The notes: generated by a model not told the origin, from the letters alone. A DNA stretch of 64,000 bases from Escherichia coli O157:H7 (GCF_013167455.1 NZ_CP038328.1); one strand, 5' to 3'; positions 10,558 through 40,385 are shown, counted from the stretch's first letter. A program made the numbers and translations.

Positions 10558-11712
10558 TTATGCCTGCCACGGATGAATGATTACGCCTTGCACCACGCGG
10601 TTAACGGTGCCACTGGCTGATGGGGTATCCGGCGTATTGCCCATGTGCAGCGACTGCATCAGTGCAAACGTCTGGGCGTACATCAGGAAGCAAAATGCCT
10701 GCTCAACGTCGATAAAGTGACGTGACGGTGGCAGGATGATATGTGGACCGGCAGCGACGATGTCGCTGCTTTCCGCGGCGATGGCGATTACACGCATTGC
10801 CTGGTTGTCACGGTGAAGTTCAGCCAGCAGATCAAGATCATACTGACGGGTGTAAGGGTGGCTGGAGACAAATACCACCACCAGTGTTTCGTTATCGACC
10901 AGCGATTTTGGTCCATGACGGAATCCGGTTGGAGAATCATAAAAGGCCGCCAGTTTACCCGCCGTCAGTTCCAGCACTTTCAGCGCCGACTCGCGTGCTG
11001 CGCCCTGTAAGCCACCGCTGCCGAGATAAACGATCCGTTTCCACGGTGCGTAACCAAACACACCTTCGCTGAAATCGCCCAGTGAGGTCAGGATCGCCTG
11101 GCAACGATCCGCCACGTCGCGGAAGGTTTGGCTGTTGATCGTCTCAGGTGCGAAAACCGCGAGGCAGCTGGCCATCATGGTGGTAATGCTGCTGGTCATC
11201 GCAAAGCCGCGATCGTGCGTTTCTGCGGGCATCAGCACGGCAAACGCGTTATCGCTGTTGATCGCGTTTTGGTAAAGAGCGCCCGCTTCGTTGCAGGTGA
11301 TCGGCAGGTGATAGCATTCCGGTACAAATTGATTTGCCAGTTCCACGGCTGCGACGCTTTCCGGGCTGTTGCCGGATCGACCGAAGGAGATCAACAGCAG
11401 CGGATGGGCTGGGTTCAGGTAGTCCATCGGATTAGTGACCAGATCGGTGGTCGGTACGGCGCTGAAGTTTTTACCGGTATGGCTGGCGAGCCACGGCGCG
11501 ATGATGTCACCGATAAATGCCGAGGTTCCGGCTCCGGTCAGGATGATCCGCAGATTCTCTTTGCGCAGTAACGGTTCAAGGAAGTTATTAAGCGCGGAAT
11601 GTAGCGCGTCGATGTTGGTGAGCGAACGGATCCATGCGCGAGGCTGATGGCGGATCTCTTCTTCAGTCCATGTACCGGTTGCGGCGGCAGCAGGGGTGTA
11701 ATTTTCTGGCAT
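10558..11712 (-). CDS. agaS: Sugar isomerase (SIS)-domain galactosamine-6-P deaminase/isomerase
   Basis: 384-aa ORF; tandem SIS-domain-like sequence; aga operon context. Confidence 0.9.
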   Translation of the reverse strand: MPENYTPAAAATGTWTEEEIRHQPRAWIRSLTNIDALHSALNNFLEPLLRKENLRIILTGAGTSAFIGDIIAPWLASHTGKNFSAVPTTDLVTNPMDYLNPAHPLLLISFGRSGNSPESVAAVELANQFVPECYHLPITCNEAGALYQNAINSDNAFAVLMPAETHDRGFAMTSSITTMMASCLAVFAPETINSQTFRDVADRCQAILTSLGDFSEGVFGYAPWKRIVYLGSGGLQGAARESALKVLELTAGKLAAFYDSPTGFRHGPKSLVDNETLVVVFVSSHPYTRQYDLDLLAELHRDNQAMRVIAIAAESSDIVAAGPHIILPPSRHFIDVEQAFCFLMYAQTFALMQSLHMGNTPDTPSASGTVNRVVQGVIIHPWQA

Positions 11713-11749: not shown

Positions 11750-11900
11750 TTGTCGCTTTCACTTGCCTTTCGTTTCATTTCACTTGGTGATGTCTTTCGT
11801 TGATTAAAATCTATAGAAAAGAAACCGAAAGTTCAATGGAGAAAAAGGAAATAAAACGAAATCCGTGATCGTTGAAAGAAAAGATAAAGGAAGCAAAAGG
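11750..11900. promoter_or_regulatory. agaS promoter region with repeated DeoR-type (AgaR) operator motifs
   Basis: Repeated CTTTCGTTT / AAACGAAA motifs (for example cctttcgtttcatttcac, gaaaccgaaagtt, aaaacgaaatcc) immediately upstream of agaS. Confidence 0.55.
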
Positions 11901-11902
11901 GA

Positions 11903-11995
11903 TTGCTGGATGCGGCGCAAACGCTTTATCCGGCCTTGCGGTCACCAACTGTAGGTCGGATAAGACGCGTTAGCGTCGCATCCGACACCGCTGCA
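11903..11995. repeat. REP/BIME palindromic units
   Basis: gatgcggcgcaaacgctttatccggcc ... ggtcggataagacgcgttagcgtcgcatccgaca, a typical REP inverted pair. Confidence 0.7.
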
Positions 11996-12062
11996 CAGAT
12001 CAAAACGAAAGAAAAAGAAAGGCCTTACGGGGGAAGTGAAGGCCCAATAATGGAGCAAACCA

Positions 12063-13196
12063 TCAAAACGAAGCTAATTGACCCTGAATCCAGATTTGTT
12101 GCACATGCAGCCCGCTATCCAGCGCAACGACGCTGGCGCGTTTGCCCGGTTTAAGCGATCCCAGAACACCATCAACACCCAGCATTCGCGCCGGATGCAG
12201 CGACGCCATATGAATGGCTTCCGCAGGCGTTACGCCCGTCAACTCGACCATGTTGCGCACTGCCGCATCAACAGACAGCGTACTGCCCGCCAGCCCACCG
12301 GACGCGGTACGGACAACGCCACCGTGCATCTGCACTTCTTCGCCACATAACGTATAGCGACCATCCGGCATCCCGGCTGCCTGCATCGCGTCGGTGATCA
12401 GTACGATTCTCTCTTTCGCACAGCAACAACACAGCGACATTGCCGCCGGATGCACATGATGACCATCGGCTATCAGTTCCAGCCAGGCGCGCTTGTCCGT
12501 TAATCCCGCGCCAACCATTCCCGGTTCGCGGTGATGTAAACCTGTCATCCCGTTATAGCAATGCACCAGGCCGTCGGCACCAGCATCAAACGCGGCGCGA
12601 GTTTGTTGCCAGGTCGCCGCGCTATGCCCCAGCATCACTCGTACATTTTGCTGTTTAAGATGGCGGATGGCCTGCAATGCCCCCTCTTTTTCCGGTGCCA
12701 GCGCTACCACGCGTAAGGTGTGCTGAGAAACGGCAATCAATTGATCCAGCTCGGCAATTTCAAGCTCGCGAAACAACTCCGGCGGATGCGCGCCTTTATT
12801 CTGCGGCGTGAAGTACGGTCCTTCGAGATAACTCCCCAGCACTTGCGCACCAGGTCCGCCGCGTTGGCAACGTTGAGCAATACGTTTCAGCGCCGCATGA
12901 ATGGTACTAAGCGGCGCGGTTACGGTAGTCGGCAACCAACTGCCGACACCTTCGCGTGCCTTGTGCATTGCCAGCTTGTCGAGTACATCCGGCGCGTCAT
13001 CCATTACATCAACGCCCGCACCACCGTGTACATGGGTGTCGATGTAAGCGGGGCAGAGCAGTTCCGCATCGCGTTCAGTCACGCTCACTGGAATCGGTTC
13101 GATTGCTGCGATGACACCGTCAGCAATACGCAACTGATGGTCATCGAGCCATCCCTCTTCAGTCAGCAGCCTTCTGGCGCGCAGAACGTGTGTCAT
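12063..13196 (-). CDS. agaA: N-acetylgalactosamine-6-phosphate deacetylase, full length (377 aa)
   Basis: ORF MTHVLRARRLLTEEGWLDDHQL...; NagA-family metal-binding motifs; intact, unlike the truncated K-12 allele. Confidence 0.9.
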   Translation of the reverse strand: MTHVLRARRLLTEEGWLDDHQLRIADGVIAAIEPIPVSVTERDAELLCPAYIDTHVHGGAGVDVMDDAPDVLDKLAMHKAREGVGSWLPTTVTAPLSTIHAALKRIAQRCQRGGPGAQVLGSYLEGPYFTPQNKGAHPPELFRELEIAELDQLIAVSQHTLRVVALAPEKEGALQAIRHLKQQNVRVMLGHSAATWQQTRAAFDAGADGLVHCYNGMTGLHHREPGMVGAGLTDKRAWLELIADGHHVHPAAMSLCCCCAKERIVLITDAMQAAGMPDGRYTLCGEEVQMHGGVVRTASGGLAGSTLSVDAAVRNMVELTGVTPAEAIHMASLHPARMLGVDGVLGSLKPGKRASVVALDSGLHVQQIWIQGQLASF

Positions 13197-13627
13197 ATCC
13201 CTTCCTCGACCGGACATTCTTCATGGCAGCGGCCTAACTCGTCCACCAGACTGGTCAGCCCACGATGTCCACACTCCAGCGCCTGTACACGGAATTCTTC
13301 ACCGCTTAACCCTTCGCGCTCCAGCACCATCTCCAGTAGCAGTTGCAAATTGGTGCCGGTGATCACTTCACAGCCCGGTTTTTGCATCGCCAGCGTTGAA
13401 GCTACGCGAAACGGCGTGCCGCCCAGCAAATCCGTCAGAAAAACAATGCCGTCTTCACAATCCAGTTGGGCGATGGCCTCTTCAAGCTGCGATGTAAGCA
13501 GCGCGGTGCTTGAGGTTTCCGGAAAATCGATGGCGATAAACTGCGATTGCTCACCGAGAATTTGCTTCATTGCTTTTTCCATGCCGCTGGCAAACCCGCC
13601 ATGCCCTGTCAAAATAATACTTAACAT
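13193..13627 (-). CDS. agaF: PTS GalN/GalNAc IIA component
   Basis: 144-aa ORF MLSIILTGHGGFASGMEKAMKQILGE..., mannose-family IIA. Confidence 0.85.
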   Translation of the reverse strand: MLSIILTGHGGFASGMEKAMKQILGEQSQFIAIDFPETSSTALLTSQLEEAIAQLDCEDGIVFLTDLLGGTPFRVASTLAMQKPGCEVITGTNLQLLLEMVLEREGLSGEEFRVQALECGHRGLTSLVDELGRCHEECPVEEGI

Positions 13628-15798: not shown

Positions 15799-17079
15799 TT
15801 ATTGGCCTTCACAGGCTGTGTGGTACTGCGCCAGGATGTCCTGAATATGGTTGATAATGAGTTCCCGTGGCGTTGGCTGCAGCTCGCCGGAGCGAACTTT
15901 CACGTACTGCAGCGGCAGATACTGGCTGATCAGCGGCAGCGGAATTGGTGAATCCGCCAGATTACGTACCAGATGAGCGAAAGCGTCATCAATCTGGCTG
16001 TCCGGCCAGTAATAGCGCACGCGATCCGAGTAGCTATAACCACGCGCCAGACGACGCGCGTTGCCGTCACCGTGGTAGTGGCTTTGCCAGTATTCCGGGC
16101 GGTTGAGCATCACGTTTTCCAGCACCTGACGCAGACCAGAACAGGCTTTTGCTGGCACCAGTTCTTCTTCAATCGCTGCCAGAGAGAACAGAGCTTCACG
16201 CAGGGCGAAGGTCAGCGCCGGGCCAACTTTCAGAATGGCAAAGTGGTCAATCACCAGCTGGCGCAGCGATTGCGGCGTTTGATAATCGGTAGAGTGCGCT
16301 TCGAAAATCAGCGTTTCGTAGCTTTCGACCATCTGGCTTAAGGCGGTCGCTTTGGCGGGCTGATAATCAATAACGTTGGTGTGATCGAATTCGACGCCGG
16401 GTTGAACCACCAGGGCAATGATGCGTGGCCAGATGGCATTCAAACCTTGCTTTTCAAAGGCGTGACGATGGGCTTCCAGCGTGGCGCGGGCGGCATCCGG
16501 CGTGGTGACCGCCAGCTCGCTTAAGGTTTCATGCGCGCCGCCAGGTACCGGCACTTCGGTACCAATGACATACTCCAGATCGGCTTCGCCAAAGTGTTCA
16601 AGACAGGTTTCTTCCGCCACTTTCGCCAGACGGGCGGCGCGTTCAGCCACGATGTCATCAGTTAAGGGAATCGGATCGTCCTGACAGGACATGCTGCAAT
16701 CAAGGTGGATTTTTTTGAATCCTGCCGCAACGTAGCTTTTAATCAAATCATCGGCATTGGCCATTGCCTGAGCGGCCGGCAGGTTTTGCCAGCGGTTTGG
16801 CCCCAGATGGTCACCACCCAGAATCAACGCATCCTGCGGGAAATTCAACGAGTCGGCGAGCTGACAAACAAAGCCGCGAAAATCGGCGGGCGTCATTCCG
16901 GTATAACCGCCGAACTGGTCTACCTGATTGGAGGTTGCTTCAATCAGTAACGGCGTTTGGTTTGCACTGGCGTAGCGGATTGCAGCCTCCAGCACCAGCG
17001 GATGTGCGGAACAAACGGCATAAATTCCATTTGTTTTGCCCGCTTTGTGCTGTCTCACCATTTCTGTCAGATGTTTCAC
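15799..17079 (-). CDS. kbaZ: Tagatose-bisphosphate aldolase non-catalytic subunit
   Basis: 426-aa [40 protein letters not shown]... Confidence 0.9.
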
Positions 17080-17109
17080 TTTCCTCTCCAGTTCAGATTA
17101 CTGCGATAT

Positions 17110-17320
17110 TAATCTTTCGTTTTGTTTCAGTTGATACTGCGTCATGGTGAGATAAAAATAAAACGAAAGATAATAGTTTTCTGATCTGATTCACAAAAGA
17201 AACATAATGAAAGTCACTGAAACGAGAGTAGCTTGCGTCAATGGGCAAGGTGGGCTTGCATTTGCTTAATAGAAAGGCGTTAATAGGCAAAACGAAATGA
17301 AACGAAAGTTTTACGAAAGG
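17110..17320. promoter_or_regulatory. Divergent agaR / kbaZ promoter region with multiple AgaR operator repeats
   Basis: At least four copies of CTTTCGTTT / AAACGAAAG-type motifs (ctttcgttttgtttc, aaaacgaaagataa, tgaaacgagag, aaaacgaaatgaaacgaaagtttt). Confidence 0.6.
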
Positions 17321-17327
17321 ACTTACT

Positions 17328-18137
17328 ATGAGTAATACCGACGCTTCAGGTGAGAAGCGAGTGACAGGCACCAGCGAGCGACGAGAACAGATCATTCAGC
17401 GTCTGCGACAGCAAGGGAGTGTGCAGGTTAACGATCTGTCGGCATTGTATGGCGTATCTACCGTGACGATCCGCAACGATCTGGCGTTTCTGGAAAAGCA
17501 GGGGATCGCTGTGCGTGCCTATGGTGGCGCGTTGATCTGCGATAGCACAACGCCGTCAGTCGAGCCATCAGTGGAAGATAAAAGCGCGCTGAACACCGCA
17601 ATGAAACGCAGCGTTGCGAAAGCTGCCGTTGAGTTGATTCAGCCAGGTCATCGGGTGATCCTCGATTCCGGGACCACCACTTTTGAGATTGCTCGTCTGA
17701 TGCGCAAGCACACTGACGTAATTGCGATGACCAACGGTATGAACGTGGCTAATGCGTTGCTGGAAGCGGAAGGCGTTGAGCTGCTGATGACCGGCGGGCA
17801 TTTGCGCCGTCAGTCGCAATCTTTTTACGGCGATCAGGCTGAGCAATCGCTGCAAAATTACCACTTCGATATGCTGTTTCTTGGTGTAGATGCGATCGAT
17901 CTGGAGCGCGGCGTCAGCACGCATAATGAAGATGAAGCCCGTTTAAACCGCCGGATGTGCGAAGTTGCGGAACGGATCATCGTGGTCACCGATTCCAGTA
18001 AATTCAATCGTTCCAGTTTACATAAGATCATTGATACTCAACGTATCGACATGATCATTGTTGATGAAGGCATTCCTGCGGATAGCCTGGAAGGGCTGCG
18101 AAAGGCTGGGGTTGAAGTGATTCTGGTCGGGGAGTGA
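17328..18137 (+). CDS. agaR: DeoR-family repressor of the aga operon
   Basis: 269-aa ORF with N-terminal HTH ([39 protein letters not shown]) and DeoR C-terminal domain. Confidence 0.9.
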
Positions 18138-40264: not shown

Positions 40265-40385
40265 GGTTTTGGGTATCGTGCCGGATGCGATGCTGGCGCA
40301 TCTTATCCGGCCTACGGGTTGTTTAATTCGTTAATGTTGTTGGATTTTGTAGGCCGGATAAGGCGTTTTCGCCGCATCCGGCAAC
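40265..40385. repeat. REP/BIME palindromic units
   Basis: gccggatgcgatgctggcgcatcttatccggcctac ... gtaggccggataaggcgttttcgccgcatccggca. Confidence 0.75.

Follow-up and report, generated by a model that had tools for sequence, protein, structure and literature searches.

The repeat arrays in the agaR-kbaZ and agaA-agaS intergenic regions of Escherichia coli O157:H7 are very probably operators of AgaR, the DeoR-family repressor encoded alongside them. The 64,000-nt stretch of DNA that was analysed (hereafter the window) contains the O157:H7 aga/gam (N-acetylgalactosamine/galactosamine) cluster in reverse orientation, and the gene order agaR, kbaZ, agaV, agaW, agaE, agaF, agaA, agaS, kbaY, agaBCD, agaI is as expected in the O157:H7 RefSeq annotation; by megablast the sequence is 100% identical to O157:H7 chromosomes. 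The AgaR operator system in this cluster is already known biology, a textbook repressor-operator system that has been found again here. The genes that border the two regions are as follows.

10558-11712, minus strand: agaS (Pfam/NCBIfam family match)
12063-13217, minus strand: agaA, deacetylase (family match; called nagA in the RefSeq annotation)
15799-17079, minus strand: kbaZ (Pfam/NCBIfam family match)
17328-18137, plus strand: agaR (protein confirmed by Pfam and NCBIfam)

The AgaR protein reaches 465 bits with the NCBIfam AgaR equivalog model (cut-off 260), carries the Pfam domains HTH_DeoR and DeoRC, and scores as a relative of SrlR, GlpR, and DeoR in a profile search. The 248-bp agaR-kbaZ intergenic region is identical to that of K-12 at 247 of 248 bases and the 350-bp agaA-agaS region at 344 of 350, and because of this near-identity in both regions the results obtained with K-12 AgaR apply to this window. 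The K-12 aga locus differs in that its agaW-agaE-agaF-agaA segment is deleted, whereas the O157:H7 window keeps the full segment. The window carries an uninterrupted agaA (an ORF of 384 aa); O157:H7 PV15-279, identical in other respects, lacks 4 bp at window 12635-12638 and its gene is annotated as frameshifted, and agaI is a pseudogene with an internal stop in the PV15-279 annotation.

The AgaR operators of the K-12 aga/gam regulon were reportedly characterised by Ray and Larson in 2004, in Mol Microbiol 51:813, and Leyn et al. are said to have reconstructed the aga/gam regulon in 2012, in JBC 287:28047. AgaR binding has been reported at the three aga promoter regions of K-12, where Pz and Ps are induced 5-fold and 20-fold by GalNAc, and deletion of agaR makes agaA and agaS constitutive in E. 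coli C (PMC3668189). The 20-bp PkbaZ AgaR site CTTTCGTTTCATTTTCGTTT, when placed on a synthetic promoter, gives AgaR-dependent repression (PMC8667592, Table S3), and it equals window 17289-17308 on the minus strand except for one displaced T. The K-12 AgaR operators lie at the same locus and in the same three AgaR-bound promoter regions as those of the window, and show no substantive difference from them. A full-text literature search with the operator strings returned no match. The initial annotation had expected the repeats to be bound by a DeoR-type AgaR, and the adjoining AgaR equivalog, the near-identity to K-12 and the reported repression of the PkbaZ site through AgaR all support that expectation.

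Repeat motifs of the aga intergenic regions

The 9-mer CTTTCGTTT occurs exactly five times in 64 kb, against 0.78 copies expected by chance, and all five copies lie inside the two aga intergenic regions; none of 100 shuffles reached five copies.

11767-11775, plus strand: exact copy of the 9-mer
12003-12011, minus strand: exact copy of the 9-mer
17114-17122, plus strand: exact copy of the 9-mer
17161-17169, minus strand: exact copy of the 9-mer
17300-17308, minus strand: exact copy of the 9-mer

By simple arithmetic, five random positions would all fall within 598 of 64,000 bases with a p of about 1e-10. The dense repeat array that had been described in the agaR-kbaZ region is real, its exact copies being confined to the aga intergenic regions, and the tandem string quoted for it, aaaacgaaatgaaacgaaagtttt, is found at 17289-17312. 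Copies with one mismatch are present in the aga regions at 17220, 17290, 11794, 11823, 11854, and 12013. Over the whole window such copies number 29 where 20 are expected, a count that 5 of 100 shuffles attain. This enrichment is weak, so the signal lies in the exact copies and their clustering.

The core TTTCRTTTYRTTTY with at most one mismatch has eight matches in the 64-kb window (0.88 expected), seven of which are in the aga regions. A 24-nt AgaR operator consensus, attributed to Ray and Larson 2004, was scanned with at most three mismatches and gave six matches, all in the aga regions and two of them with no mismatch. A position weight matrix (PWM) search for AgaR sites had been suggested, and one was carried out with a matrix trained on non-Escherichia sites only; the top eight of 128k positions in the window are all in the aga regions, a result whose core scores are partly circular because the training sites were picked with a 14-mer pattern. 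The best match outside the aga regions (TCCTGTTCATTTCATTTTGATACA at 28473-28496, plus strand, score 10.1) lies 38 bp upstream of an ORF at 28534-29472; it is probably fortuitous and was treated as chance.

A different view of these repeats is that they are chance features of AT-rich promoters (UP-element-like T-tracts or simple-sequence slippage) rather than protein-binding sites. The regions are T-rich, and the modest window-wide excess of the one-mismatch 9-mer would sit comfortably with such an origin. The exact and long-pattern matches stand against it, since they occur only or almost only in the aga regions.

Operators and promoters at agaR, kbaZ, and agaS

Each AgaR operator consists of three or four direct 5-bp repeats (TTTCR/TTTYR; e.g., TTTCG, TTTCA, TTTTA) around the core TTTCRTTTYRTTTY. 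The candidate operators lie 36-230 bp upstream of the agaR, kbaZ, and agaS start codons. Those of the agaR-kbaZ region, together with the sequence features that accompany them, are listed here.

17111-17134, plus strand: AgaR operator nearest kbaZ; exact core TTTCGTTTTGTTTC at 17115-17128; PWM score 28.7, rank 4 of 128k
17149-17172, minus strand: AgaR operator at -89 from kbaZ; core TTTCGTTTTATTTT at 17155-17168; PWM score 30.3; conserved alignment block
17180-17195: CRP-like site, a sequence reading, TGTGAATCAGATCAGA on the kbaZ strand; block conserved in 62 sequences
17193-17216, minus strand: AgaR operator at -133 from kbaZ; core TTTCATTATGTTTC at 17199-17212, one mismatch; PWM score 19.1
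17256-17285, plus strand: predicted agaR promoter; TTGCAT at 17256-17261, 18-bp spacer, TTAATA at 17280-17285
17283-17311, minus strand: tandem AgaR operator, four pentamers in succession, CTTTCGTTTCATTTCGTTTTG; cores at 17289-17302 and 17294-17307

To compare these features across Enterobacterales, species-representative genomes were scanned with AgaS, which gave 71 loci with 10-kb flanks. The order agaR, divergent kbaZ, and through agaA to agaS is kept in most of the 71 loci, and the agaR-kbaZ region measures 240-251 bp in all loci compared. Its four operators stand at -228/-230, -132/-133, -88/-89, and -48/-50 from the kbaZ start in constant orientation. The operator nearest kbaZ is oriented against kbaZ transcription, begins 49 bp before the start codon, and has a counterpart at -48/-50 in almost all of some 60 orthologous loci. 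The next operator, whose counterpart is fixed at -88/-89 across genera, overlaps the likely kbaZ core promoter. The third abuts the CRP-like site, which thus lies between the second and third operators, and in most loci it keeps the same single mismatch at -132/-133. The tandem operator is situated just downstream of the predicted agaR -10 and 17 bp before the agaR ATG; it has the top PWM score in the window (32.4), no mismatch to the 24-nt consensus, and a counterpart at -228/-230 from the kbaZ start in all loci.

A column-conservation profile of 62 sequences shows conserved blocks at the operators, the CRP-like site, TTGCAT, TTAATA, and the kbaZ ribosome-binding site, and both hexamers of the predicted agaR promoter fall in blocks that are at least 95% conserved. 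A consensus promoter scan did not call this agaR promoter and found no promoter in the kbaZ or agaS direction; two weak agaR-direction matches far upstream were not adopted. Within the spacer of the predicted agaR promoter, positions 17271-17279 (agaaaggcg) are conserved as GCCTTTCT, with GCCTTTCTTTT as the consensus in other genera, and GCCTTTCT is also the string that opens the terminator tail described below, GGCCTTTCTTTT (12017-12025). The kbaZ gene is a known CRP target recovered by genomic SELEX (PMC3105977), and this control would be exerted at 17180-17195.

The agaA-agaS region carries a second set of operators around a predicted agaS promoter.

11764-11787, plus strand: agaS operator O_S3; core TTTCGTTTCATTTC at 11768-11781; PWM score 29.7; no mismatch to the 24-nt consensus
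11808-11836, minus strand: predicted agaS promoter; -35 TTGAAC at 11831-11836, -10 TAGATT/TATAGA at 11808-11815
11811-11834, minus strand: agaS operator O_S2, within the spacer of the promoter; the E. coli sequence is degenerate (TTTCGGTTTCTTTT), and other genera have a better one (TTTCGTTTTCTTTT)
11842-11865, minus strand: agaS operator O_S1, just upstream of the predicted -35; core TTTCGTTTTATTTC at 11848-11861; PWM score 23.0

Measured from the start codon, the three conserved agaS operators stand near -149, -118/-122, and -69. O_S3 is oriented against agaS and lies downstream of the predicted transcription start, about 69 bp before the ATG; its counterpart is found at -59 to -77 in 68 of 70 loci. 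The O_S1 counterpart stays between -141 and -152 in nearly every locus and invariably keeps a distance of about 80 bp from O_S3. O_S2 scores only 6.1 with the PWM in the window, against 14-20 in Yersinia, Buttiauxella, and Kluyvera at -118/-126, and TTGAAC and TATAGAT are conserved around its position in the cross-genus comparison. The promoter strings CATTGAAC and TATAGATTT are conserved in 70 sequences, and the predicted agaS promoter falls under the threshold of the consensus scan.

Two further elements were observed near these operators. The string GATCAC(A) at window 11865-11870, immediately upstream of O_S1, is conserved across genera and could represent half of a CRP site or extend the operator. 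Outside Escherichia, the near-palindrome GATGTGGAATTCACA is conserved about 20-45 bp upstream of the agaS start (L007, L009, L011, L012, L018, L059, and other loci), between the downstream agaS operator and the ribosome-binding site, where E. coli has the unrelated CGACGTCAAGTTCATCAG; the near-palindrome may be bound by a different regulator.

In about 60 loci, which range from Escherichia to Yersinia, Buttiauxella, and Cedecea, the operators keep their distances from the start codons while the flanks diverge. This bears directly on the view that the repeats arose by chance: position, orientation, and site-specific mismatches are kept across genera while neighbouring bases vary, and AgaR binding has been reported, as has AgaR-dependent repression through one such sequence (PMC8667592). 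The one-mismatch copies at 17220-17228 and 11794-11802 do fit a chance origin, for they lack conservation outside Escherichia, and both were rejected as operators. For the arrays as a whole, a chance origin is extremely improbable and is effectively refuted already.

The AgaR operator reading suggests how the three promoters would be controlled. In the agaR-kbaZ region the tandem site would lie over the agaR transcript start and lead to autorepression, and the other three operators would bracket the kbaZ promoter and the CRP site. At agaS, operators would lie upstream of the -35, in the spacer, and downstream of +1. The operator downstream of each predicted start is antisense to transcription, and at kbaZ and agaS this downstream operator faces a sense-oriented operator 40 or 80 bp upstream. 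Without inducer, AgaR oligomers would most likely occupy these paired, oppositely oriented sites cooperatively; the bound protein would then cover -10/+1 at the three promoters, exclude RNA polymerase, and crowd out CRP at kbaZ. Growth on GalNAc or GalN would lead to the release of AgaR. We infer the promoter hexamers, which are weak, the occlusion, and the cooperativity or looping from the arrangement of the sites.

This arrangement can be set beside other known systems. DeoR (deo operon) and GlpR (glp operons) are, like AgaR, sugar-phosphate-responsive DeoR-type repressors with several operators and expected cooperative binding or looping. The operators of DeoR and GlpR are palindromic, whereas the AgaR operators in the window are built of direct 5-bp repeats in runs, the two members of a pair being oppositely oriented and 40-80 bp apart. 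TagR of E. coli Nissle 1917 is also a DeoR-family regulator with a divergent intergenic region, a CRP site, and operators containing CTTTC...GAAAG, and its authors remark on the resemblance of the tag operators to the aga cluster (PMC12226905). It differs in being another regulator, for D-tagatose, with two 19-bp sites (tagO1 and tagO2) known from prediction. The Streptococcus AgaR (S. pneumoniae, S. suis) shares the name and the regulated pathway, but it is a GntR-family protein with unrelated operators and is not a homologue.

The agaA terminator and its operator-like tail

Between agaA and the agaS operators lies one further copy of the motif, which coincides with the end of the kbaZ-agaVWEFA operon.

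12002-12045, minus strand: predicted intrinsic terminator of agaA (kbaZ-agaVWEFA operon); hairpin 12021-12045, tail CTTTCTTTTTCTTTCGTTTT at 12002-12021

The GC-rich hairpin begins 17 nt after the agaA stop and is directly followed by CUUUCUUUUUCUUUCGUUUU, and a 71-nt stretch with the terminator hairpin and a small upstream hairpin folds at -15.3 kcal/mol. A simple terminator scan missed this terminator, probably because about 12 nt are enclosed by its outer GGCCTT/AAGGCC stem and only loops of 3-8 nt were considered. A similar hairpin (-8 to -19 kcal/mol) precedes the tail in every orthologue although the stem sequences differ, and in an alignment of 27 sequences all five outer stem pairs show compensatory double changes (e.g., CG in 15 sequences and UA in 10). 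Read from its sequence, 12002-12045 is an intrinsic terminator, and the motif that the initial annotation had placed at 12001-12022 is the tail of this terminator.

The tail is conserved far beyond the needs of termination, and termination alone does not fully explain its invariance. Beside a stem that varies, the tail sequence CTTTCTTTTYCTTTC is unchanged in 41 of 52 loci, and 47 of the 52 have at most one mismatch. The 5-bp TTTC register is preserved in the tail, which may, by its sequence, be a weak distal AgaR site. If the tail binds AgaR, the REP pair described below has moved it from about 103 to about 160 bp from the promoter operators.

We therefore weighed whether 12002-12021 is a real distal AgaR operator that doubles as the terminator tail and either loops to the agaS operators or roadblocks read-through from agaA, with its geometry altered by the REP. 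The near-invariance of the tail beside a variable stem is what such an operator would show, as is its PWM rank: the tail is the eighth-best of 128k positions, above every match outside the aga regions. Its score is 12.5, compared with 19-32 for the seven accepted core sites, and although it has just three mismatches to the 24-nt consensus, both core purines (R positions) are pyrimidines. In 33 loci the tail lies 101-105 bp from O_S1 although the spacer has diverged, which would favour a spatial relationship with the promoter operators, but the distance is 48 bp in Enterobacter and 153-160 bp in Escherichia, and the classes of 48, about 103, and about 160 bp share no common helical phase. A second box, CTTTCATTRYG, is found just after the agaA stop at a fixed 45-46 bp upstream of the tail, exact in 22 non-Escherichia loci, and also favours a distal operator. 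Termination requires a U-rich tail in any case, and Ps is regulated about 20-fold in E. coli with the REP present (PMC3668189). A distal operator with REP-altered geometry is thus possible, but we regard it as doubtful.

The CTTTCATTRYG box shares an identical 11-nt stretch with the kbaZ -133 operator and has been lost in Escherichia; its carriers include most non-Escherichia genera (e.g., L007, L011, L012, L015, L025, L044, and L046). In two Kosakonia loci (L058 and L071), about 200-250 bp upstream of agaS, the tail is expanded to a tandem array of CTTTCG/CTTTCA hexamers. This array could be low-complexity slippage or an amplified operator-like tract, and its resemblance to slippage in low-complexity DNA counts against a distal operator. 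Taken with the tail, the box prompts a more specific and rather unlikely proposal from sequence comparison, namely that the two form a distal AgaR operator module on the terminator that could act as an insulator or form a loop with the agaS promoter at a distance of about 103 bp, and that this module is decaying in Escherichia, where the first box is lost and the REP pushes the tail to about 160 bp.

The conserved sequences at the agaA terminator might instead act as RNA, as a 3'UTR-derived small RNA or an RNA chaperone site, and not as DNA operators. A pyrimidine-rich box, a co-varying hairpin, and a conserved U/C tail are indeed the layout of a terminator-containing 3' end. In Rfam, the agaS upstream region yields only sub-threshold matches to naRNA4, a REP-derived family, which support the REP assignment, and a weak match to MIR6445 (E 0.62), all below gathering score. 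The boxes also have the sequence of AgaR operators, an indication that they are recognised as DNA, and a role as RNA is accordingly quite improbable.

The REP pair between agaA and agaS

An inverted REP pair occupies the spacer that separates the agaA terminator from the agaS promoter.

11904-11986: inverted REP pair (BIME); REP at 11951-11986, minus strand, and variant REP at 11904-11937, plus strand

Matched to the REP consensus, 11951-11982 has no mismatch. The inverted-repeat arms are 86-91% complementary, the pair folds as one long hairpin when folded as RNA, and a second REP copy is present in the window at 40284-40315. A 301-bp query matched 7,937 places in 5,343 genomes, the extra REP matches elsewhere being those of a dispersed, multi-copy, extragenic element. 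The window copy is like other E. coli REP/BIME elements in its consensus match, its imperfect palindromes in an inverted pair, and its extragenic position between a terminator and the next promoter.

It differs from the usual REP/BIME in that its segment exists as two E. coli haplotypes related by an exact replacement, in which alignment shows a 47-bp block swapped for 47 bp while the intergenic length stays 350 bp. The two-REP haplotype is carried by O157, ST131, and K-12, the last with the same REP arrangement as the window; the other, with one REP, a 13-nt REP stub, and unrelated sequence, is carried by IAI1, E. whittamii, and the cryptic clades. When window 11890-11950 is compared with L074 (IAI1), L076, L005, and L003, the haplotypes do not follow the phylogroups simply, with B2, A, and E having one and B1 and the cryptic clades the other.

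Among the loci compared, REP sequence is present only in four from Escherichia (L003-L006), and in other genera each locus departs from the REP pattern at 11 or more positions. The E. albertii type strain (L067) has a different insertion at the REP position: about 2.85 kb lies between agaA and agaS (7148-10000 of that locus), with ORFs for an SBP_bac_11 solute-binding protein and a DUF302 protein. Neither terminator nor REP is left in this locus, the agaS operators have decayed (TTTCACTTCATTTC), and the downstream site lacks one pentamer.

It had been asked whether a REP element splits the motif cluster upstream of agaS and so alters operator spacing. The motif at 12003-12022 is physically apart from the other agaS-side motifs, as had been noted, but it is a terminator tail and is not among the three conserved operators. 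A disturbance of the agaS operators by the REP is not supported: all three are on the agaS-proximal side of the REP, their spacing is equal in genera with and without it, and K-12, in which the published work was done, has this REP as well. The comparison with REP-less strains that had been proposed has no counterpart within E. coli, for none was found among 5,307 complete genomes that carry the locus (the 301-bp query was covered fully at 86-100% identity, with a segment of equal length at the REP position in each); REP-less genera keep the core spacing. The REP pair is an Escherichia-specific insertion outside the operator triad.

For the aga cluster, the REP element thus appears as a harmless passenger in the agaA-agaS spacer. 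Should the agaA tail prove to bind AgaR, one sequence would serve as both transcription terminator and repressor site. To an otherwise known repressor-operator system, the cross-genus map, in which each of the three promoters keeps a fixed number of operators in fixed spacing and orientation, may be a small but useful addition.
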